From an uncultured Candidatus Rokubacteria bacterium (GTDB taxonomy: Bacteria > Methylomirabilota > Methylomirabilia > Rokubacteriales > DASRDR01), in NCBI GenBank assembly GCA_963805625.1, contig CAWDVE010000021.1, positions 192,001 to 256,000 of the forward strand: 64,000 bases of DNA. Direction: 5' to 3'. The translations under genes and the position numbers were made by a program. Under the pieces are notes generated by a model, which did no database searches, was not told the origin of the DNA, and saw only the letters and a program-made list of their open reading frames with translations. Below are positions 3,828-36,224 of this stretch, in pieces. The first letter of the stretch is position 1. Each line of letters begins with the position of its first letter.

Positions 3828-3836
3828 CGACGGTAC

Positions 3837-3893
3837 GGGCGATGGGGTTCGCCTCCTGAACCGCCGCCTCCCGAGGCGGCTGATGACTCCTAC
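3837..3893 (+). ncRNA. Fluoride (crcB) riboswitch aptamer
   Basis: GGCGATGGGGTTCGCC...AACCGCC...GGCTGATGACTCCTAC matches the crcB-motif pattern; lies upstream of a Fluc gene. Confidence 0.93.
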
Positions 3894-3918
3894 TGGGTGG
3901 TCCCGGTGGGAGTTTTTT
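3886..3918 (+). terminator. Riboswitch expression-platform intrinsic terminator
   Basis: ACTCCTACTGG pairs with CCGGTGGGAGT and is followed by a T-run; the 5' arm overlaps the aptamer 3' pseudoknot strand. Confidence 0.85.
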
Positions 3919-5358: not shown

Positions 5359-6789
5359 TCAGGTGTCGGCGCCGCCGGTCGTGAGCCCGAGCTGCCGGAG
5401 CTTCTTGCGCAGCGTGTTGCGGTTGATCCCGAGCAGCGCGGCCGCGCGCAGCTGGTTTCCGCCCGTCTCGCGCAGCACCGCGCGCAGGAGCGGCCGCTCC
5501 ACGAGCCCGATCAGAAGGTCGTAGAGGTTCGCGGATTCGCGCCGCCCCAGCCCGTGCACGCACTCGGCGAGTTTCTGCTCGACCAGCTGCTCGAGGGTCC
5601 CGGCCGCGGCCGGGGGCGGCCCCGCGCCCGGGGCGATCGGCAGGTGCTCGGGCAGGATGACCCCGCCCCCCGCCATGACCATCGCGTGCTGGATCACGTT
5701 CTCCAGCTCGCGGACGTTTCCCGGCCAGCCATAGCCCACGAGGCGCTCGAGGGCCTCGGTGGCCACGGCGCGCTCGCCCAGCTCGGTCCCGTACTTCCCG
5801 AGGAAGTGATCCACCAGGAAGGGCACGTCCTCGATCCGCTCCCGGAGCGGGGGCAGGGTGAGCGTGACGACGTTCAGACGGTAGTAGAGGTCCTCGCGGA
5901 AGCGTCCCTCCCGGATGAGGGTCTCCAGATCGCGGTTCGTGGCGGCGACGACGCGGACGTCGACGGGGATGACCTCGCCGCCGCCGATGCGCTCGAGGTG
6001 CCGTTCCTGGAGCACCCGCAGGAGCTTGGGCTGGAGCTCCGGTCCCAGGTCGCCCACCTCATCGAGGTACATGGTGCCGCCGTGCGCCAGCTCGAACCGG
6101 CCGAGGCGGCGCTGGTGGGCATCCGTGAACGCGCCCCGCTCGTGCCCGAAGAGCTCGGACTCGAGAAGTGTCGCCGGGATCGCCGCGCAGGAGACCGCCA
6201 CGAAGGGCTTGCCAGCCCGCCGGCTGTAGTGATGGATCGCGCGCGCGACGACCTCTTTCCCCGTCCCCGACTCCCCGCGCAAGAGGACGGTCACGTCGGT
6301 GCCGGCGATCCGGCCGATGGTCTTGTAGACCTCCTGCATCCGGGCCGACTTGCCGACGAGCGCGCCGAACTCCCAGACCTCCTGGATCCCCGTCCGGAGC
6401 TCGACGACCTCGCGCGCGAGGGCTCGCGCCGAGAGCGCGCGCTCGGCCAGGAGCCGCACCTCGTCGTTGTCGAACGGCTTCGTGAGGTAGTCGTAGGCCC
6501 CGCGCTGCATCGCCTCGACCGCGGAGCGGACGCTTCCGTGGGCCGTCATCACGATCACGGCCGTGTCGGGCGCGGAGGTTCTGAGGCGCGAGAGCACCTC
6601 GAGCCCGTCGACGTCGGGCATCCGCACGTCGACGAACGCCAGGTCGTACGGCTCGGCGCCCGCCCGCGCGAGCGCGCCGGCGCCATCCTCTACGACGGTG
6701 ACCGAGTGGCCCGCCTGACTCAGCACCCGCTCGAGGAGCCACCGCATCGACGGCTCGTCGTCGGCGACGAGGATCCGGGCGGGACTCAT
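5359..6789 (-). CDS. ntrC: Sigma-54-dependent response regulator, NtrC family (REC-AAA+-Fis HTH)
   Basis: ILVADDE receiver, GESGTGKE, ESELFGHERGAFTDA, WPGNVRELEN, LGINRNTLRKK; ATG 6789 overlaps the kinase stop. Confidence 0.85.
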   Translation of the reverse strand: MSPARILVADDEPSMRWLLERVLSQAGHSVTVVEDGAGALARAGAEPYDLAFVDVRMPDVDGLEVLSRLRTSAPDTAVIVMTAHGSVRSAVEAMQRGAYDYLTKPFDNDEVRLLAERALSARALAREVVELRTGIQEVWEFGALVGKSARMQEVYKTIGRIAGTDVTVLLRGESGTGKEVVARAIHHYSRRAGKPFVAVSCAAIPATLLESELFGHERGAFTDAHQRRLGRFELAHGGTMYLDEVGDLGPELQPKLLRVLQERHLERIGGGEVIPVDVRVVAATNRDLETLIREGRFREDLYYRLNVVTLTLPPLRERIEDVPFLVDHFLGKYGTELGERAVATEALERLVGYGWPGNVRELENVIQHAMVMAGGGVILPEHLPIAPGAGPPPAAAGTLEQLVEQKLAECVHGLGRRESANLYDLLIGLVERPLLRAVLRETGGNQLRAAALLGINRNTLRKKLRQLGLTTGGADT

Positions 6790-7967
6790 CGCGGGGCCGC
6801 CGGCGGCTCGGGCCGGAGGGCGCCGCCGGCGGGAGGCCCCGCCGGCGGGCCCCCGCTCGCGGTCGGCGCGATCGGCAGGTAGGCGCTGAAGATCGTCCCC
6901 TTGCCCGGCGTGCTCGCGACGCGGAGGGCGCCGCGGTGCTCGTCGACGATGCGATGCGCCAGAGCCAGGCCGAGCCCGAGCCCCCGGGGCTTCGTGGTCA
7001 CGAATGGATCGAACACGCGATCGAGGAGCTCGGCGGGAATGCCCTCCCCCTCGTCCGTCACCTGGACCTCGACCAGGGGCCGCGGTCCAGCGCCCACGTC
7101 GACGCGCCCGCCGAACACGGTGTCGAGCGACAGGCGCGTCGTGAGGGTGAGCCGCCCGCCCCCGGGCATGGCTTCGATCCCGTTCTGGACCAGGTTCTGG
7201 AACACCTGGACGAGCCGGTCCGCGTCGGCCCACAGCGGCGGAAGGCTGGGGTCGTAGCGGCGCACGAGCTGGACCTCGTGGGCCCGGGCGGCGGGCTCGC
7301 CCAGGAGGGTCACGCGATCGAGCAGCTCGTGAAGATTCACGAACCCGAAAGTGAAGGTCAGCGGCCGCCCGAGATCCAAGAGAGCTTCCATCACGCGGTT
7401 GACACGGTCGATCTCGGCGAGCATGACGCTCACGTGCTCCCGGAATGGGCCGCTCCCCCCGAGCTCGTCCCCCAGAAGCTGGGCGACGCCCCGGATCGCC
7501 CCGAGCGGATTCCGGATCTCGTGCGCGAGGGCGAGCGCCATCTGCCCCAGCGCCGAGAGCCGCTCGCCGCGCCGGACCTCCGCCTCGAGGGCTCGGATCC
7601 GCGACAGATCGCGCAAGACGGCGACCGCGCCGCGAAGGCCGCCGCTCGGGCCGTGGATGGGCGCCGTCAGCACGCTCACCGGGATCGAGCGCCCGTCGAT
7701 CGTCGTGACCTCGGACTCCGGCTCGGCCCGCCCCTCGGCCAGCCGGACCGTCTCACTCAGATGGCGGATCAGCCGCGCCCCGGCGCCCAGGCACTCGGGT
7801 AGGAGCCGCTCGAGCGCGCGCGTCGCCGAGCGCCCGGTGAGCGCCTCGGCGGCACCGTTCCACAGGAAGACGGTGAGGTCGGGCCGCACGCCGATGACCG
7901 CGTCCGGCAGGCTCGCCAGGAGCCGGTCGACCTCGGACATGGGACCGCCGGTACCGCCGGTCGTCAT
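6786..7967 (-). CDS. ntrB: Cytoplasmic PAS sensor histidine kinase, NtrB-like
   Basis: N-terminal PAS-like region, LAHEIRNPLGAIRG H-box, YDPSLP, QVFQNLVQN, FVTTKPRGLGLGL; no transmembrane segment; alternative start at 7940. Confidence 0.8.
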   Translation of the reverse strand: MTTGGTGGPMSEVDRLLASLPDAVIGVRPDLTVFLWNGAAEALTGRSATRALERLLPECLGAGARLIRHLSETVRLAEGRAEPESEVTTIDGRSIPVSVLTAPIHGPSGGLRGAVAVLRDLSRIRALEAEVRRGERLSALGQMALALAHEIRNPLGAIRGVAQLLGDELGGSGPFREHVSVMLAEIDRVNRVMEALLDLGRPLTFTFGFVNLHELLDRVTLLGEPAARAHEVQLVRRYDPSLPPLWADADRLVQVFQNLVQNGIEAMPGGGRLTLTTRLSLDTVFGGRVDVGAGPRPLVEVQVTDEGEGIPAELLDRVFDPFVTTKPRGLGLGLALAHRIVDEHRGALRVASTPGKGTIFSAYLPIAPTASGGPPAGPPAGGALRPEPPAAPR

Positions 7968-18836: not shown

Positions 18837-18971
18837 CAGGAGTGTTTCGCGACGGCCCGACGCCGGAGCGAGATGGGCGCGTCTCCCGAGCGGTCACCGG
18901 CCGACACACGAAGGCTCACGAGGAGCCAGAGTACACCGGAAGCGCAGGCGCCGAGCGGACGCGCGCGCCGG

Positions 18972-20810
<1,839 letters not shown>

Positions 20811-20862
20811 CGCGCCATCACCTCACTCGGAGTGTCTTACCGCTGCTGCATCGCCGAGGATA

Positions 20863-20878
20863 AGCAACCCGCGTGCCA
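20863..20878 (-). promoter_or_regulatory. Sigma-54 (-24/-12) promoter upstream of glmS
   Basis: Minus strand TGGCACG-CGGG-TTGCT fits TGGCACG-N4-TTGCW with GG-N10-GC spacing; predicted +1 near 20852; SD GAGGTG at 20824-20819. Confidence 0.75.
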
Positions 20879-20904
20879 GCCCGGGGACGATCACCCCGCT
20901 CGCC

Positions 20905-20999
20905 CGCCCGAGGTCTGCTGCTCGGCCACTTGGGTTCGGCGGCGCCGGGCTGTTGCTGTCACGCAACCTCGAACCCCATGCCGCGTTTCACCTCGGGCG
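20905..20999. repeat. Nested inverted repeats in the glmU-glmS spacer
   Basis: CGCCCGAGGT (20905-14)/ACCTCGGGCG (20990-99); GGGTTCG (20932-38)/CGAACCC (20970-76); GTTGC (20952-56)/GCAAC (20963-67). Confidence 0.7.
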
Positions 21000-21036
21000 C
21001 TCGGGCGCGCGCCGTCCAGCTGCCTCCCTGAACCGG

Positions 21037-22503
21037 TCAGGGCACCGGGTCGACCCGACTGTTCTCCACTCCGGGACGACCCCGGCGCCGCGCCGTCCAG
21101 CCCTCCTTGACGTCCTGCGGCGCCCGCTCGACCGCCAGGGCTCCGGGGGGCACGTCCCGGGTGATCACGGACCCCGCGCCCACGTACGCGTCGTCTCCGA
21201 TCGTGAGCGGAGCCACCAGGCTCGCGTTCGTCCCGACGAACGCGCGCGCGCCGATCCGCGTCTGGTGCTTCCGCATGCCGTCGTAGTTGCAAGTGACGGC
21301 GCCGGCGCCGATGTTGGCACCCTCGCCCACCGTGGCGTCGCCGATGTAGCCGACGTGGTGCGCCTTGACCCGGCGTCCGATCGTGGCTTGCTTGATCTCG
21401 AGGAAGTTGCCGATCTCGGCTCCGGGCCCGATCCGCGCGCCTCGGCGCAGGCGGGCAAACGGGCCCAAGGTCGCGTCGTCCTCCACCCGGGCTTCATCGA
21501 GCACGCAGTAGGGGCGGAGCGTGACGCGATCCCCGAGGGCCGTGTCGGTGAGCTGGGAGCCCGTCCCGATCACGCACTCTTCCCCGATCACCGTGCGCCC
21601 GGCGAGGCGTACGCCGGGATGGAGCACGGTGTCGCGGCCGACGGTCACGGCCGTGTCGACGTACGTCGCCGCCGGATCGACCACCGTGACCCCGGCGGCC
21701 ATGAGCGCGTCGAGGGTGCGCGAGCGCAGGAGCCCCTCGAGCGCCGCGAGCTGCCGGCGGTCGTTGACGCCAGCGACCTCGCGCGGGTCCGTCACGCGCA
21801 CGGCCTCGATCCGGCTCCCGCGCCGCGCCAGCTGGCCGATCACGTCCGTCAGGTACACCTCGCCCTGTACGTTGGCAGGCGCGGGCCGGGCGACGGCCTC
21901 GAGAGCCGGCCATAGTCGGCGCGGGTCGAAGCAGTAGATCCCCGAGTTGCACTCGCGGCCGCGCCGCTCGGCCGGCGTCGCGTCGCGCTCCTCGACGATG
22001 GCGCGGACACGGCCGTCCCGGCCTCGGCGGACGCGCCCGTAGCCGCTGGGATCGGTCGGCACGAACGTCAGGAGGGTGGCGGCCGCGCGCGCCGCCCGAT
22101 GGCGCGCGAGAAGCGCAGCGAGGGTCGCCCTGTCGAGAAGCGGCACGTCACCGTAGAGGAGCAGGAGCTCGGTGGCCGTGTCCGGCACCTCGGGCCGCGC
22201 CCGACGGAGGGCGTCTCCCGTGCCCCGGGGCTCCGGCTGCTCCACGAAGCGCGCCCCGAGGTCGGCGAGCGCCGCTCGTACGGTGTCGGCCCCGGGGGCC
22301 ACGACGACCACCGTCCCCGCCGTCCCGGCCTCCCGCACGAGCGCGACCGGATAGCGGACCAGCGGCTGTCCTCCCAGCAGATGGAGGATCTTGGGCCGAC
22401 CCGACCGCATGCGCTTGCCCTCGCCCGCGGCGAGGATCACGGCCCAGGTCTCGCGCGGGATGGGGCGGCTTCGGGAGCGGCCCATCCCGGCCGGCCTAGA
22501 CAC
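21037..22503 (-). CDS. glmU: Bifunctional UDP-GlcNAc pyrophosphorylase / GlcN-1-P acetyltransferase
   Basis: ILAAGEGKRMRS..PK, LYGDVPL, GEVYLTD, hexapeptide repeats, NIGAGAVTCNYDG; start may be 22485. Confidence 0.96.
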   Translation of the reverse strand: MSRPAGMGRSRSRPIPRETWAVILAAGEGKRMRSGRPKILHLLGGQPLVRYPVALVREAGTAGTVVVVAPGADTVRAALADLGARFVEQPEPRGTGDALRRARPEVPDTATELLLLYGDVPLLDRATLAALLARHRAARAAATLLTFVPTDPSGYGRVRRGRDGRVRAIVEERDATPAERRGRECNSGIYCFDPRRLWPALEAVARPAPANVQGEVYLTDVIGQLARRGSRIEAVRVTDPREVAGVNDRRQLAALEGLLRSRTLDALMAAGVTVVDPAATYVDTAVTVGRDTVLHPGVRLAGRTVIGEECVIGTGSQLTDTALGDRVTLRPYCVLDEARVEDDATLGPFARLRRGARIGPGAEIGNFLEIKQATIGRRVKAHHVGYIGDATVGEGANIGAGAVTCNYDGMRKHQTRIGARAFVGTNASLVAPLTIGDDAYVGAGSVITRDVPPGALAVERAPQDVKEGWTARRRGRPGVENSRVDPVP

Positions 22504-23512
22504 GGGCCGTCACCGGCCGCCGGGCGGGGCCGCCGCGCCGGATGAGCCGCGCGAGGACGCGGCCGAGCTTCTCAGGGTGGTGCCGCGCCAGCTCGGTGGG
22601 CCCCGCCACATCCGCCTCGGTGAGCCAGACCCCGAGGGCGCGCACACGCTCCCGATCGATCGTGAGGGGGCTCGCTCCCGCCCGCGCGTAGCGAGCCACC
22701 ACGTCCGGTGGAAACGGGCGCCCGTGCACCACGATGCCGTCGATGACCCCCCGCCCGCCGTGGGCGTACATCGCCTCCAGGTGATCCCCGAGCGACATCC
22801 GATCCGTCTCGCCGGGCTCCGTCATCAGGTTCGCCACGCAGATCTTGAGCGCCGCCGCCGCCCGCAGCGCGTCGGCGACCCCCCCGACCAGGAGGTTCGG
22901 GATCAGGCTCGTGTAGAGCGAGCCCGGCGCCAGGACCACCACGTGCGCGTGGGCGATGGCCTCGAACACCTCCGGCAGCGCCCTGACATCGCCGGGCTCG
23001 AGGAAAACGCGCTGGATGGGCACGCCCTGCCGCGTGATGTTCGACTCCCCCAGGACACGTGTGCCGTCGGCCAGCTCGGCCCCGAGCCGCACGGCGGTGA
23101 GCGTCGAGGGCAGGATGGTCCCGCGCACGGCCAGCACCTTGCCGGAGATGCGAATCGCGTGCAGGAAGTTGCCCGTGACCTGAGTGAGGGCGGCGAGGAA
23201 GAGGTTCCCGAAGCTGTGGCCGGCGAGCTGCCCCTCGCCCGGGAACCGGAACTGGAAGAGCTCCGCCATCAGGGGCTCGACCTCCGCCAGGGCGACGAGG
23301 CAGTTGCGGATGTCGCCCGGGGGAAGCACCTGGAGCTCCTCGCGCAGACGACCGGAGCTGCCCCCGTCGTCGGTCACGGTGACCACGGCCGTCAGGGCGG
23401 CGACGCGTCCGCCGAGGTAGCGCTTCAACGCCGTGAGGATCACCGGGAGGCCCGTGCCGCCGCCAATCGCGACGACCCGGCGCCCACCATTGTGTCGCCC
23501 GCGCGCAGCCAT
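22496..23512 (-). CDS. yvcK: YvcK/GlmR (UPF0052) UDP-GlcNAc-binding protein
   Basis: IGGGTGL, VTVTDDGGSSGRLR, PPGDIRNCL, HSFGNL, PGSLYTSLIPNLL. Confidence 0.93.
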   Translation of the reverse strand: MAARGRHNGGRRVVAIGGGTGLPVILTALKRYLGGRVAALTAVVTVTDDGGSSGRLREELQVLPPGDIRNCLVALAEVEPLMAELFQFRFPGEGQLAGHSFGNLFLAALTQVTGNFLHAIRISGKVLAVRGTILPSTLTAVRLGAELADGTRVLGESNITRQGVPIQRVFLEPGDVRALPEVFEAIAHAHVVVLAPGSLYTSLIPNLLVGGVADALRAAAALKICVANLMTEPGETDRMSLGDHLEAMYAHGGRGVIDGIVVHGRPFPPDVVARYARAGASPLTIDRERVRALGVWLTEADVAGPTELARHHPEKLGRVLARLIRRGGPARRPVTARV

Positions 23513-27934: not shown

Positions 27935-27963
27935 AGCGTAGCATCCACGCGTACTTGTGTCAA
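27935..27963 (-). promoter_or_regulatory. Sigma-70 promoter for the ileS operon
   Basis: TTGACA (27963-58), 17-nt spacer ending TGC, TACGCT (27940-35). Confidence 0.65.
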
Positions 27964-31587: not shown

Positions 31588-33500
31588 TCAGCCCGCGCCG
31601 GATGTCCCGTCCCGAAGGACCCGCTTGTCACCCACCCGGATGGTCAGCCGCTGGGTGTCGAGCCACTCGAGTAGCGGAATCGCGTACTTCCGGGAGATCC
31701 CGAGGAGGTCCTTGATCTCCTGCGGGGTGATGGCCTGATGCTCCCTCAGGAAGGCGAGGACCCGCCCGACGGCTTCCTGGAGGGGCTCGGCGTGGAAGTA
31801 GAGCCCCTCCCGGATCCGCACGAGCCGCCGACCCTCGACCAGGAGCTGGGCCATGGCCTGGGCCGCGGAGCCCGCGAGCCCGAGCTTCGCGAATGCCTCG
31901 TCCAGGGTGGGCGGCGCCACTCCGGCCTCTCGGAACTCGGTCTCGATCCGGTCGGACGCCGCCTGCTGGGCCGGCGTCAGGCGGACCGTGTGCCCGGCCC
32001 CCCGAACCTTGTCCTTGTCGACGACGAGAACCCCGGCCGCGGCAAAGCGCTCAAGGAGCGCGAGGAAGACACGCTCCTCGAGGCTCCCGAGCCGCGTGCG
32101 GAGCTCCTCCTTCGACATCCCCGGCTTGAGAGGCTCACGCGCGTGGAAGGCGGCGAGCGCCGCCTCGGCCTCCCGGCGGAGACGCTCCGCTGTCTCCGCG
32201 TGGACGTACCACTCCCGGTCGATGACGAAGACGCGCTCGCGCGCCACGAGATCCTGGAGGTACCCGCGGAGCGCTTCGGGGCCAAACGGCGTCCGCGCGC
32301 GGAGCTCCGCCGTCCGCACCCCGCCCCCGCCGACACGCTGGATATGGGCCTCGAGGACCGCTGCCGGCGGGCTCGTCTCGAGAGTCCGGAGACGCCCGGT
32401 GAGGGCCGGGCTCCGCCGCGCCTTGGGCGGGGCGACATCGAGGAGCTCACCGCCACCGATCGTCACCATCGGGGAATAGCTCCGGATGACGTAGCGGTCG
32501 CGGGGCAGCGCCACCACTGGCGTCTCGAGCCGGAGCTGGACGTAGCCGGTCTCGCCCGGCTCGATGGCGGTCTCCCCCAGGGGGTGCACGCGCGCCATGA
32601 CCTCGCTCGTCCCGATGTGGAAGCGCACGCGCTGGCGTGTCCGGAGGGGGGCGGGGGCGTCCTCCAAGAGCTCGCACGTGGCGTCGAGCATGTAGGTGGG
32701 CTGGAGGAGTCCCGGCAGCGAGAGCACGTCGCCACGCTCGATTGCCGCACGCTCGATTCCCTGGAGGTTCACAGCCGCACGCTGGCCGGCAACGGCCGTC
32801 GAGACGGGCTGCCCGTGGGTCTGGATGCCACGCACCTTGGCCTGGAGCCCGTGCGGGTACACCTCGACCCGCTCGTCCAGGGTGAGCTGGCCGGCCGCCA
32901 CCGTGCCGGTCACCACCGTGCCGAACCCCCGGATCGTGAAGACGCGGTCGATCGGCAGGCGGAAGGTGGCATCGGTCCCCCGGGGGGGACGGCCCGCGCG
33001 AGGGCGGCGAGCGCCTCGCGCAGCCCCGGCAGCCCCTCGCCCGTCTTGGCCGAGACGGGAAGGATCGGCGCACCGTCGAGGAACGTCCCGCCCAGGAAGC
33101 CCCGGACGTCCTCCTGGACCAGCTCCCGCCACTCGGGCTCGGCCAGATCCGCCTTGGTCAGCACGACGAGCCCGCTCTGGATGCGGAGCAGCTGGCAGAT
33201 CGCGAGATGCTCCCGAGTCTGCGGCATCACCCCCTCGTCCGCCGCGATGATCAGCATGACGAGGTCGATCCCGCCGACCCCCGCCAACATGTTCTTCACG
33301 AACCGCTCGTGCCCGGGGACGTCGACGATGCCAAGCGTCACGCCATCCCCGAGATCGAGGTGGGCGAAGCCGATGTCGATGGTGATGCCGCGCTCTTTCT
33401 CCTCCTTGAGGCGATCGGGATCGATCCCGGTCAGCGCCAGGACCAGGCTCGACTTGCCGTGGTCGATGTGCCCCGCGGTGCCGGCGACGACGTGGCGCAC
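31588..33500 (-). pseudogene. selB: Selenocysteine-specific elongation factor SelB, split by a 1-nt frameshift near 32985 (may be an assembly error)
   Basis: N-part [29 protein letters not shown]; C-part [21 protein letters not shown]...[10 protein letters not shown] in another frame; junction in a C7G5 run that needs C8 to restore the frame. Confidence 0.9.
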
Positions 33501-33510
33501 GGCGGATGGA

Positions 33511-34986
33511 CTAGACGAGCGCCGTCAGGGCGGCGGCGAGGAGTGGCACCTCGTCGTCCATGACGGTCCGGCAGTCCAGCAGCAGACGGTCGGCGGCGAT
33601 GCGGCCGATGACCGGCAGGCGACCCGCCCGGAGCCGCGCGTCCAGCGCCGCGGCCGGGTGTCCGGAGGTACCGAGCACGAGGGTGGCGGTCGGGAGCTCG
33701 GCCAGGGGAAGCGCGCCGCCGCCCACCTCGGACCGGCCGGCCACGACCGCCAGACCGAGGGCCGTGCGGGCAGCCCCCGGCACGCGGTGGAGCACGCGGA
33801 GCGCGCGGCGCCGGACGACGGCCGCCGAGTCACTCAGCATGCGGAGGGTCGGGATCTCGCGCGGCGCGGTCGTCGGGTCCTCGTACGCCCGCAGCGTCGC
33901 CTCGAGCGCCGCCAGAGTGAGCTTGTCGATCCGGAGCGCCCGGTTCAGCGGGTTCTGGCGCAAGCGCTCGATGAGCGCCTGGCGGCCCACGACGATCCCG
34001 GCCTGCGGGCCGCCGAGGAGCTTGTCGCCCGAGAAGGTGACCACGTCAGCGCCGGCGGCGACCGTCTCCGGCACCGTCGGCTCGCGCGGAAGACCCCACG
34101 GCCGGAGGTCGAGGAAGCAACCGGAGCCGAGATCCTCGAGCACCGGAACGCCACGCGCCCGGCCCAGCTCGGCGAGCTCCGCCGTGAGGACACTCTCCGT
34201 AAACCCCACCACCCGGTAGTTCGAGGGATGCACCTTGAGGAGGAGCGCGGTCTCGGGCGTGATTGCGCTCGCGTAGTCGGCGAGGCGCGTCCGGTTCGTC
34301 GTCCCGACCTCGACCAGGCGAGCCCCCGACCGGGCCATGATGTCCGGGATCCGAAAGGCGCCGCCGATCTCGATCAGCTCGCCCCGGGATACCACGACCT
34401 CGCGCCCTCGCGCGAGGGACTCGAGCGCGAGCAAGACGGCCGCGGCGTTGTTGTTGACCACCAGCGAGGCCTCGGCTCCGGAGAGGCGGCAGAGGAGACC
34501 GTCCACGTGCTCGTAGCGCGAGCCGCGCGCCTTCGTGCGAACGTCCAGCTCGAGATTCGAGTACCGGGCGGCGACGAGCGCGAGCCGCGCCAGCGCCGCC
34601 CGACCGAGGGGCGCCCGGCCGAGGTTCGTGTGCAGCACCACCCCGGTCGCGTTGACGACGTGGTCGAGCCCCCACGCCCCGGCCGCGTCGAGCGCGGCGC
34701 GCACGCGCGGCAGGAGCGCCGGGGTCTCGAGCGTGAGCGCGTCGAGCTCGGCCGGCGACGCCGCAGCCAGCACCGCCCGGCGCCGCTCCGCGAGGACCGT
34801 CCGCACGGCGTCGACCACACGCGTGCGTGACGCGGCCGGCCGGCCGTCGAGCGCCCGGACTACCTCGTCGACCGAAGGGAGCGCGCGGAGCCGGCCCCGC
34901 CGGCGGGCCGTGAACCCGTCCGGCCCGTCGGCGCCCGGCGTCGCGCCGGCCGCCGGACGCCGGGGCGCGGAGCGCGGGCCAGCCAT
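33511..34986 (-). CDS. selA: L-seryl-tRNA(Sec) selenium transferase
   Basis: [46 protein letters not shown] (PLP lysine). Confidence 0.97.
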
Positions 34987-34987
34987 G

Positions 34988-35476
34988 TCAGGGCCTGAGC
35001 AGCGTCCGCACGGTATCGAGCAGGTTCGCCTCCCAGCGACCGGTCGAGGCACACGGGAGCCCCGACCGGGGCCTGGGCGGCCCGCTGCCCCGGGTGTACG
35101 TGTCCGTCCGCATCCGCGTGTTCACCTGGACCGCGGTCTGCGCGGCCGACACAGCCTCTACGAAGATCGTGAACGCGACCTGCGCGTCGCCCTCGACGCG
35201 CTCGTCCCCGAAGCGACCGCAGTCCGCGTAGAGGCCGATGGTTGTCGGCACCGCCTCGGAGGCGATCACGCCCGAATCCCGCGCGATGGTCCGGATCTGC
35301 ACGTTCTCCCGCGCGAGCGCCCGGACGAGCGCCCGCCACACGGCGTCGTAGGGCGCCTCGATCTGCTCCGTGTACGCGGTCGGCAGGACCGGGGCCACGT
35401 AGGCGCGGCTACAGCCCGCGAGCGCCAGGAGCGCCATCGCCCCGATGAGCGTGCGCGCGTCGCCGCGTCGTCTCAT
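34988..35476 (-). CDS. Hypothetical lipoprotein
   Basis: Basic N-terminus, hydrophobic core and LAGC lipobox; two further Cys; stop is 1 nt from the selA ATG. Confidence 0.75.
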   Translation of the reverse strand: MRRRGDARTLIGAMALLALAGCSRAYVAPVLPTAYTEQIEAPYDAVWRALVRALARENVQIRTIARDSGVIASEAVPTTIGLYADCGRFGDERVEGDAQVAFTIFVEAVSAAQTAVQVNTRMRTDTYTRGSGPPRPRSGLPCASTGRWEANLLDTVRTLLRP

Positions 35477-35480
35477 CTCG

Positions 35481-36071
35481 TCAGCGCGGGTGGTGGTCGA
35501 TGCCGCGATACGCCTCGATGAAGCGCACCACCCGGCGCTCGTCCAGCTCGTCCAGCTTGTCGATGCGCGTCCACGCCGTCAGCGCGATGCAGCGATCGAG
35601 CGTCGGGTAGGGGGACAGGACCACGCGGTCCGGATAGCGATCCACGATCGCGCGGAGCCCGGCCTGGACCTGCTCCGCGCACTGGGGCTTGTAGCTCACC
35701 ACCACGCCGCCGTCCTCGAGGTTGTGCACCTGGAGCTCCTTGGCGATCGGCCGCGCGTGGACGCCCCAGGGGGCGATGTACGGCAGATGCGGCCCCGACG
35801 TCGGGGGGTCCGAATTGTAGGCGACGTGCGGGGTCTCGGACGTCGGGATGTGGTCGTTGCCGAGGCTCGGAACGAACTCCCCCGGAATCGGTCCGCGGGC
35901 ACGCGCGTACAGCCAGCCGCCCATGCCGACGACGACCAGGATCGCAACGGCCGCTGCCGCCCAGCCGAGCCGCCGGCGCTGGCGGCGCGTCAGCGCGAAG
36001 CGCGACGCCGGCGCCGGGCCGGCCGGCCGGCCCCCGACTCGCTTCGGTTGTCCCTTACGCGCTTTGGCCAT
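35481..36071 (-). CDS. DUF3105 domain membrane-anchored protein
   Basis: Single TM, then YNSDPPTSGPH...WG...VHNLEDGGVVVSY...IALTAW; ATG 36071 with GGGGAG RBS. Confidence 0.8.
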   Translation of the reverse strand: MAKARKGQPKRVGGRPAGPAPASRFALTRRQRRRLGWAAAAVAILVVVGMGGWLYARARGPIPGEFVPSLGNDHIPTSETPHVAYNSDPPTSGPHLPYIAPWGVHARPIAKELQVHNLEDGGVVVSYKPQCAEQVQAGLRAIVDRYPDRVVLSPYPTLDRCIALTAWTRIDKLDELDERRVVRFIEAYRGIDHHPR

Positions 36072-36126
36072 CTTCTCCCCGTCCCTCCGCGATCTGCGAC
36101 GCCCGCGCTCCCGCCCCGCCCGGCCA

Positions 36127-36224
36127 TGGCGGAAGCGCGTGGGAGTCGAACCCACCTCGAGCTTGTCTAGAACCCGACACCGGATTTGAAGTCCGGGAGG
36201 CCCACCGGGATCCTATGCGCTTCC
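36127..36224 (-). tRNA. selC: tRNA-Sec (anticodon UCA)
   Basis: 8-bp acceptor GGAAGCGC/GCGCTTCC, discriminator G, CCA; anticodon arm CCGGA-CTTCAAA-TCCGG; long variable arm; 5-bp T-stem; 98 nt. Confidence 0.96.

Follow-up and report, generated by a model that had tools for sequence, protein, structure and literature searches.

What controls the transcription of glmS in Rokubacteriales, and with which other genes is this control shared? The question is raised by a stretch of 64,000 nucleotides from an uncultured Candidatus Rokubacteria bacterium (hereafter the window; G000:C21:192001-256000, in a genome of 7.27 Mb with 70% GC). Its minus strand carries the string ileS-lspA-rluD-yvcK-glmU-glmS-pcrA-gatCAB-ftsEX-envC-ctp-tsaD, followed by a kinase and an activator gene (gatC was named from its position), and the gap between glmU and glmS measures 226 nt (20811-21036), as a preliminary description had reported. 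That description placed a sigma-54 promoter and an upstream palindrome in the gap, proposed the NtrB/NtrC-like pair at the end of the string as the regulator and suggested that pcrA-gatCAB might follow the same control through the use of glutamine. Control at the GlmS step is known from the glmS ribozyme and from GlmR/YvcJ of Bacillus (accessible parts of PMC7525490 and PMC6171935). Enterobacteria use sigma-54 and GlrR at glmY/glmZ, through TGTC-N10-GACA sites (PMC3045617, in part). The glmS ribozyme (RF00234), GlmY, and GlmZ had no Rfam match in the window, and the GlmZ family (RF00083) was found in 0 of 21 genomes of the window's family. The features discussed below are collected in Table 1. 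The window also holds a fluoride riboswitch aptamer before three small genes (3829-3899, plus strand) and, on the minus strand (31588-36224), selA, tRNA-Sec, and a selB-like gene seemingly split in two ORFs (32910-33500 and 31588-32916), a split that may be an assembly frameshift.

Table 1. Features around glmS and lpxC (positions refer to the window unless a contig or locus is named)
Feature	Position	Strand	Basis
NtrB/NtrC-like pair (kinase 6786-7940, activator 5359-6789)	5359..7940	-	best family ntrC 522 bits, cut-off 558.6
Conserved GGTGTACTCT, -10-like element before pcrA	18928..18937	-	13/13 loci of genus g1, 0/6 of other genera
glmS, glutamine--fructose-6-phosphate transaminase, 612 aa	18972..20810	-	TIGR01135 809.9 bits, cut-off 418
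Shine-Dalgarno GAGGTG, 8 nt before the glmS ATG (20810)	20819..20824	-	sequence
Sigma-54 -24/-12 promoter TGGCACG-N4-TTGCT (CGGG spacer), predicted +1 near 20852	20863..20878	-	motif, shuffles, conservation
16-bp dyad GTTGC-N6-GCAAC (GTTGC-GTGACA-GCAAC), predicted proximal activator site	20952..20967	.	conservation; lpxC-trained matrix
TGAAAC, right half of predicted distal activator site	20985..20990	-	33 bp upstream of the dyad's right half
glmU	21037..22485	-	TIGR01173 above cut-off
yvcK/glmR-like, UDP-GlcNAc-binding protein gene	22496..23512	-	TIGR01826 350 bits, cut-off 196
Sigma-70-like TTGACA-N17-TACGCT 5' of ileS, from which basal read-through into glmS is predicted to start	27935..27963	-	sequence; below scan threshold
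lpxC-DUF4390-ntrY-ntrX cluster	G000:C17:301611-306941		
NtrX-like gene	G000:C17:305550-306941		
Distant sigma-54/glmS loci	L405, L407, L410, L413, L414, L417, L418, L421, L422, L424-L429, L431, L433, L434		

The promoter motif was found as described, with its GG (20877-20876) and GC (20865-20864) separated by 10 nt on the minus strand, and the Shine-Dalgarno sequence lies where it had been placed, which gives a predicted leader of about 42 nt. One copy of the strict sigma-54 motif is present in the window, and 100 shuffles gave none. In the whole genome, TGGCAY-N5-TTGCW was found 57 times; 55 of these occurrences are intergenic (the intergenic share is 19.5% by the gene calls of this analysis) and 48 have a same-strand gene within 350 nt. 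Controls with wrong spacers gave 8 (N3), 3 (N4), 0 (N6), and 2 (N7) occurrences. The N5 spacer is far commoner than the wrong spacings, and sigma-54 promoters are therefore under selection in this genome. The preliminary description had proposed to look for rpoN, and the gene is present, between genes which we take, from their translations, to be lptB and hpf, in the string lptB-rpoN-hpf-rapZ. The genome has 40 matches to sigma-54 activator domains. Eight RNA runs share 5-9% of the window's words, of which four were compared, all as assembled contigs of distant samples. One contig, from run X2, matches 20721-20979 except for 2 differences; it passes over the predicted start with no 5' end visible and may represent DNA or read-through. 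Within the predicted leader, a conserved ACTC/CTC directly 5' of the Shine-Dalgarno sequence pairs with it in many predicted folds of the genus (20836-20819, minus strand), which makes a weak anti-Shine-Dalgarno hairpin possible.

Comparison with relatives, another check proposed at the outset, showed that the GG-N10-GC spacing and the dyad are kept in the glmU-glmS spacers of the family. The motif TGGCAY-N5-TTGC lies 57-83 nt upstream of glmS in 18 of the 19 loci of the window's family that include the glmS start. None of 11 loci of other families has the promoter, and glmU and glmS nearly abut there. A survey of 251 genomes of the phylum located the promoter 5' of glmS in 18 of the 21 genomes of the family and in none of the 230 others (reversed control, 0), and it is kept in 6 of 7 genera. 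Three family genomes are without it. G007 gave no glmS match, and in G010 a contig end interrupts glmS. G020 has lost the spacer, and a FastTree phylogeny places it within the promoter-bearing genomes. TGGCA and TTGC are invariant in all 18 motif-bearing loci, and the 4-nt spacer between the two boxes takes 12 forms. When the glmU-glmS spacers are aligned, three conserved islands emerge (TGMAAC, then after 16-17 nt GTTGC-N6-GMAAC, then the promoter) and the rest is unalignable.

An exact-pattern scan of metagenomes added 31 sigma-54/glmS loci, 13 of the type of the window's family and 18 with a distant GlmS (44-57% identical in alignments longer than 80 residues; Table 1). The distant loci range in GC from 0.39 to 0.72 and have a consensus sigma-54 motif 51-75 nt 5' of glmS; a search for glmU within 1.5 kb gave no match, and the dyad is absent from them (best score 7.2 bits). 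Sigma-54 motifs before glmS thus recur in other lineages, where the activators are probably others. Could the motifs before glmS in the window be a chance occurrence or a non-functional relic? The dyad alone reaches the same count in 5 of 100 shuffles of the window, weaker evidence than that of the promoter motif, and G020 lives without the spacer. However, the motif positions are invariant in a variable spacer, the promoter is kept across genera, and the dyad is present in 13 of the 13 further metagenomic loci. Conservation largely refutes this reading, which we regard as extremely improbable. Conservation and the presence of rpoN both support the proposal of a sigma-54 promoter and an upstream enhancer directly 5' of glmS, and we consider the two elements almost certainly real.

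The enhancer has more parts than first reported. The palindrome GTTGC-N6-GCAAC was found exactly as reported, with its centre at about -107 from the predicted +1, and is conserved in the loci of the family. The exact GTTGC-N6-GCAAC form occurs a single time in the 7.27-Mb genome, and the general form in glmS loci is GTTDC-N6-GMAAC, a pattern fitted to these loci themselves. The preliminary description overlooked the conserved half-site TGAAAC further upstream. Its spacing to the dyad is kept at 32-34 bp across glmS loci, and the distal site is devoid of a conserved left half. The distance from the dyad to the GG of the promoter is 81-85 in 11 loci, 49-51 in 5, 73 in one, and 168 in one; in the 13 further metagenomic loci it is 48-51, 63, or 81-85. 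These distances are about whole helical turns apart, which would fit an activator reaching the promoter by looping. A site for the bending protein IHF between enhancer and promoter is common at sigma-54 promoters and is not obligatory; inspection of the alignment revealed no conserved block of this kind.

The activator first proposed was the neighbouring NtrB/NtrC-like pair, which would tie amino-sugar synthesis to nitrogen status. This pair is syntenic with glmS across the order, its best family is ntrC, and GlmS consumes glutamine. The sites of the nitrogen genes are nevertheless of another kind. glnA has a sigma-54 motif and 17-bp sites of the type TGCCY-N7-KKGCA in 17 of 17 family loci, and glnK has a similar 17-bp site, presumably the geometry of NtrC. 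The glmS spacer holds a 16-bp dyad and not a 17-bp site, and the 7 glnA promoters that were located score no higher than 2.5 bits for this dyad. Matches to the pair came from 38 of 41 genomes, among them 14 of the 17 sister-family genomes. The recognition helix of its activator reads GINRNTLRKKL in 30 of 30 loci, some with the glmS promoter and some without it, despite a dyad that varies from family to family. Activation of glmS by this pair is therefore very unlikely, and from the sites and helices compared here the pair is likely a nitrogen regulator outside the glmS circuit. In 29 of the 30 loci, which span two families, GAFTG is replaced by GAFTD in the activator of the pair.

The extension of sigma-54 control to pcrA-gatCAB was not supported either. 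A conserved -10-like element stands before pcrA (Table 1), and TACAAT is found at a like place in some loci of the sister family. Hence, pcrA-gatCAB need not depend on sigma-54 and likely have their own promoter, with some sigma-54 read-through into them possible. Beside this element, a GTG located 8 nt after it is in frame with pcrA in some relatives, and in other relatives and the window (18937-18836, minus strand) it begins a frame of 27 codons that ends in TGATG at the pcrA start, which suggests a leaderless start with translational coupling.

Another candidate target was first seen by reading upstream regions. In G000, lpxC has a sigma-54 promoter preceded by ATTAC-N6-GAAAC and, 34 bp on, GCTGT-N6-GCAAC, and it is followed by a DUF4390 gene, a kinase of NtrY_N-HAMP-PAS-HisKA build, and a REC-AAA-Fis regulator. 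The combination of sigma-54 promoter and tandem dyads 32-34 bp apart precedes lpxC throughout the order, and lpxC adjoins ntrYX in every class examined. The regulator has the build REC-AAA(GAFTGA)-HTH with GAFTGA intact and was matched in 211 of 251 genomes. It scores 523 bits on the curated NtrX family NF051870, still its best family; since this is below the cut-off of 600, we call it NtrX-like. Its score on GlrR is 359 bits, so that it is nearer NtrX than enterobacterial GlrR, and its first structure match is NtrX of Brucella (PDB 5m7n). In other classes of the phylum (L447-L450), lpxC lies upstream of an NtrX-like gene and has a TGGTA-type sigma-54 motif with GTTGC/GTCGC-N6 dyads, an arrangement which suggests that the lpxC circuit is phylum-wide.

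The lpxC sites lead back to glmS. A matrix trained on the lpxC sites of other genomes, which were chosen with a generic dyad seed, was applied to the 110 intergenic sigma-54 candidates of G000 and ranked lpxC first (21.5 bits) and glmS second (15.4 bits), the next candidate scoring 10.4 bits. The matrix trained on glmS alone gave no strong second target, with lpxC sixth of 153. A search for the strict dyad together with the sigma-54 motif in 21 whole genomes returned 35 hits, which comprise 18 at glmS (in 17 genomes, one being counted twice through a contig overlap), 16 at lpxC, and 1 other, with 0 in the reversed control. A third hit in G011, before a prepilin-like gene, was not counted; its ortholog in G000 is without the dyad. 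G197, where no promoter was located, was left out of the lpxC sets, and G147 was left out for its short contig. Since the tandem dyads of glmS match those of lpxC, it is likely that one envelope-sensing regulator raises precursor supply and outer-membrane synthesis together. From these sequence comparisons, we consider it probable that glmS and lpxC are both activated by the NtrX-like protein encoded beside lpxC.

Other sigma-54 promoters of G000 have features of their own. Three of them (C17:383442, C16:459722, and C10:350384, one before a pilin-like gene) have a common upstream TGACAAT and possibly form a PilR-type regulon. Dense clusters of sigma-54 promoters precede small stress-type genes at C19:313000-394000 and C17:612000-677000 (universal stress, CBS, and Hsp20-like by reading of the translations), and several of these promoters have GTGTC/GTCGC-N6-GCGAC-like dyads.

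The recognition helix of the NtrX-like protein varies together with the dyad. It reads GIGRVNLW in 19 genomes of the window's family and in the sister genome G023, and is of the GIERSHLY type in 39 others of the order. Position 3 of the half-site is T in all 80 lpxC halves of the GIGRVNLW group, versus 36 of 148 in the GIERSHLY-type group (G018, G034, and G035, whose NtrX was not retrieved, were grouped by family). It is also T in 52 of 54 glmS halves, a set in which one locus (L015) was scored at the wrong site. The change of helix and dyad corresponds to one branch, that of the window's family and G023 (FastTree, no clade test), and the match between helix and site thus counts once. G023 has the new helix without the glmS promoter, which suggests that the helix changed first. 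In G020 the lpxC-ntrYX locus, including an archease gene, is unassembled, and lpxA is present. The comparison of G000, G015, and G018 with G020 yielded no activator specific to the promoter-bearing genomes.

A real promoter could still be served by another conserved activator (e.g. G000 C17:895207, C19:330906, or C11:146754); lpxC would then be a target of that activator too. G000 encodes about 40 sigma-54 activator domains, several of them conserved in the family and three common to G000, G015, and G023. The dyad of the sister family, TGTCTC-N6-GAGACA, moreover fits the GlrR site TGTC-N10-GACA, in line with the accessible part of PMC3045617, so that unrelated activators can share a geometry. 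The constant neighbourhood of lpxC and ntrYX and the matching changes of helix and dyad argue against this alternative, as does the score of the NtrX-like protein on NtrX compared with GlrR. Among the named candidates, C11:146754 lacks a reciprocal match in G021 or G023 (the latter 84% complete). We consider the involvement of another activator unlikely, and NtrX-like control of both genes remains the preferred reading.

The sister family has a different arrangement. Its site was first met upstream of glmU in G033 by a looser scan. No more than 200 nt from glmU or yvcK, 38 of 78 sister-family loci bear a sigma-54-like motif (8 on the reverse strand, 0 in the coding control). Several others carry a -12 element of the variant form TCGC, and a GTCTC-type dyad of at least 8 bits accompanies the motif in 31 of the 38. 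In the window's family, none of 19 loci has a sigma-54-like motif or dyad before yvcK. The sister-family dyad falls within the final codons of rluD; TCT encodes Ser there in 52 of 59 cases, compared with 6 of 225 Ser codons at the starts of neighbouring genes. This excess of TCT points to selection on the DNA. The dyad also occurs where no sigma-54 motif was detected: 24 of 37 such glmU loci score at least 8, with TCT in 23 of 29, and these loci may represent variant promoters, relics, or a role other than with sigma-54. Thus, as predicted from sequence, glmS in either family appears to be served by a sigma-54 promoter whose dyad has the form matching that family's NtrX helix. The sister-family promoter before glmU-glmS makes it likely that the link is order-wide and moved to glmS alone in the window's family. 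The yvcK/glmR-like gene is present in relatives' loci both with and without the glmS promoter; it was rejected as a co-marker of the promoter, because it also lies 5' of glmU in the promoter-less G020, G023, and G024. In the rluD-glmU spacer of the sister family (L480-L490, L500-L566), an extended -10, TGCTAGAAT, stands just 5' of glmU; it overlaps the sigma-54 -12 element in some genomes and recalls the overlapping promoters of E. coli glmY.

Transcription entering from upstream bears on the sign of this control. A scan for intrinsic terminators from ileS to glmS, including the glmU-glmS gap, found none, and a sigma-70-like promoter precedes ileS (Table 1), so that basal read-through into glmS is likely. 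The spacer could then be mainly a negative element, in which bound holoenzyme or NtrX blocks read-through from glmU until activated, or NtrX represses an overlapping sigma-70 promoter. Such read-through would indeed cross the site, the extended -10 of the sister family adjoins the -12 element or overlaps with it, the dyad there is retained at loci where no sigma-54 motif was detected, and NtrYX lowers lpxC transcripts in Rhodobacter and Caulobacter, according to the available parts of PMC12444477 and PMC7240162. However, the activator keeps the GAFTGA that is absent from the Brucella NtrX chain, the helical phasing of enhancer and promoter fits activation by looping, and the rise of lpxC in a kinase mutant of D. 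alaskensis was read as the kinase lowering the activity of the activator (PMC4045070, in part). A mainly negative role is therefore quite improbable, and we retain activation by the NtrX-like protein.

Under this activation, NtrY and the DUF4390 protein would read an envelope signal and set the phosphorylation of NtrX. Two NtrX~P dimers would bind the sites 33 bp apart, loop to the sigma-54 holoenzyme, and open the glmS promoter. Basal glmS expression would come from read-through of the ileS-lspA-rluD-yvcK-glmU string, and sigma-54 would provide an inducible boost matching the supply of UDP-GlcNAc to the demand of lipid A. The fullest version of this account is a two-node regulon of Rokubacteriales in which one NtrX-like activator directly co-induces glmS, the gene of the entry reaction of UDP-GlcNAc synthesis, and lpxC, that of the committed lipid A reaction. 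It would be ancestral to the order, would have moved from before glmU (with the enhancer in the rluD end) to before glmS after the helix change, and would be a purely transcriptional counterpart of GlrR-GlmY/GlmZ with the same 18-bp site geometry. We regard the chances for and against this fullest version as evenly balanced.

Parts of this circuit have precedents, described here from the accessible parts of the cited reports. In Desulfovibrio, lpxC is the single target of DVU2934 (ntrX), which binds upstream of it (PMC3333781), lpxC of D. alaskensis has a sigma-54 site and rises upon loss of the kinase (PMC4045070), and lpxC is under the control of Dde_3000/Dde_3003 (PMC4045070, PMC4641369). 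Both DVU2931/DVU2934 and the Rokubacteria system combine an NtrX-type sigma-54 activator and a kinase with a sigma-54 promoter and dyads at lpxC, and both have a very small regulon. They differ in the number of targets, lpxC alone in Desulfovibrio and glmS (or glmU-glmS) as a predicted second one here, and in the site, a 15-bp GTGTG-N5-CACAC versus a 16-bp N6 dyad. The DNA-binding domain listed for the Desulfovibrio regulator also differs, and the precedent is thus a likeness, which may or may not reflect orthology.

The enterobacterial GlrK/GlrR-GlmY/GlmZ-RapZ circuit (PMC3045617) is alike in its two-component sigma-54 activator, its multiple 18-bp sites, and its effect on the level of GlmS. 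The sister-family dyad fits TGTC-N10-GACA, the window site reading GGTT-N10-AACA; the sigma-54 elements that overlap with sigma-70-like ones in the sister family and the position of rapZ behind rpoN add to the likeness. However, in enterobacteria the sigma-54 transcripts are small RNAs and the control of glmS is post-transcriptional, whereas here the promoter stands directly on glmS. With Bacillus, the genome shares yvcK/glmR-like and rapZ-like genes; unlike there, the window has no ribozyme, the leader is short, and control is predicted at initiation. In Rhodobacter, UDP-GlcNAc and lpxC transcripts rise when NtrYX is lost; the effect on lpxC was judged indirect, and no NtrX site was found at lpxC (PMC7240162). 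DUF4390 proteins modulate NtrY-type kinases (PMC13001219). The NtrYX and DUF4390-PlrP three-component systems of alphaproteobacteria thus resemble the present one in the NtrY_N kinase, the DUF4390 gene 5' of the kinase, and the envelope role (PMC7240162, PMC13001219). Yet the Rhodobacter NtrX motif is GCA-n9-TGC and the Brucella chain (5m7n) is without GAFTGA, whereas the activator described here keeps it and has sigma-54 targets.

Our literature search, mostly of open-access articles and with regulon databases outside it, found no sigma-54 promoter on glmS and no control of glmS by NtrX. There was no mention of glmS, glucosamine, or COG0449 in the accessible parts of the text of PMC3162934, of the text and supplements of PMC12316311, and of the supplements of PMC2725144 and PMC4641369. 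What is new here is therefore the predicted target, glmS (or glmU-glmS), the lpxC/NtrX circuit being already known in Desulfovibrio. How UDP-GlcNAc is shared between wall and LPS is an open question, to which the answers have mostly been proteolysis, protein contacts, riboswitches, and small RNAs (PMC12444477, in part). If our reading is true, Rokubacteriales would couple supply (GlmS) and demand (LpxC) directly at the level of transcription. NtrYX, whose signal and direct targets are debated, would gain a sharply defined two-gene regulon with readable sites, including a natural helix/site pair (RVNLW with GTT, RSHLY with GTC/GTG) that would be testable in vitro without culture.
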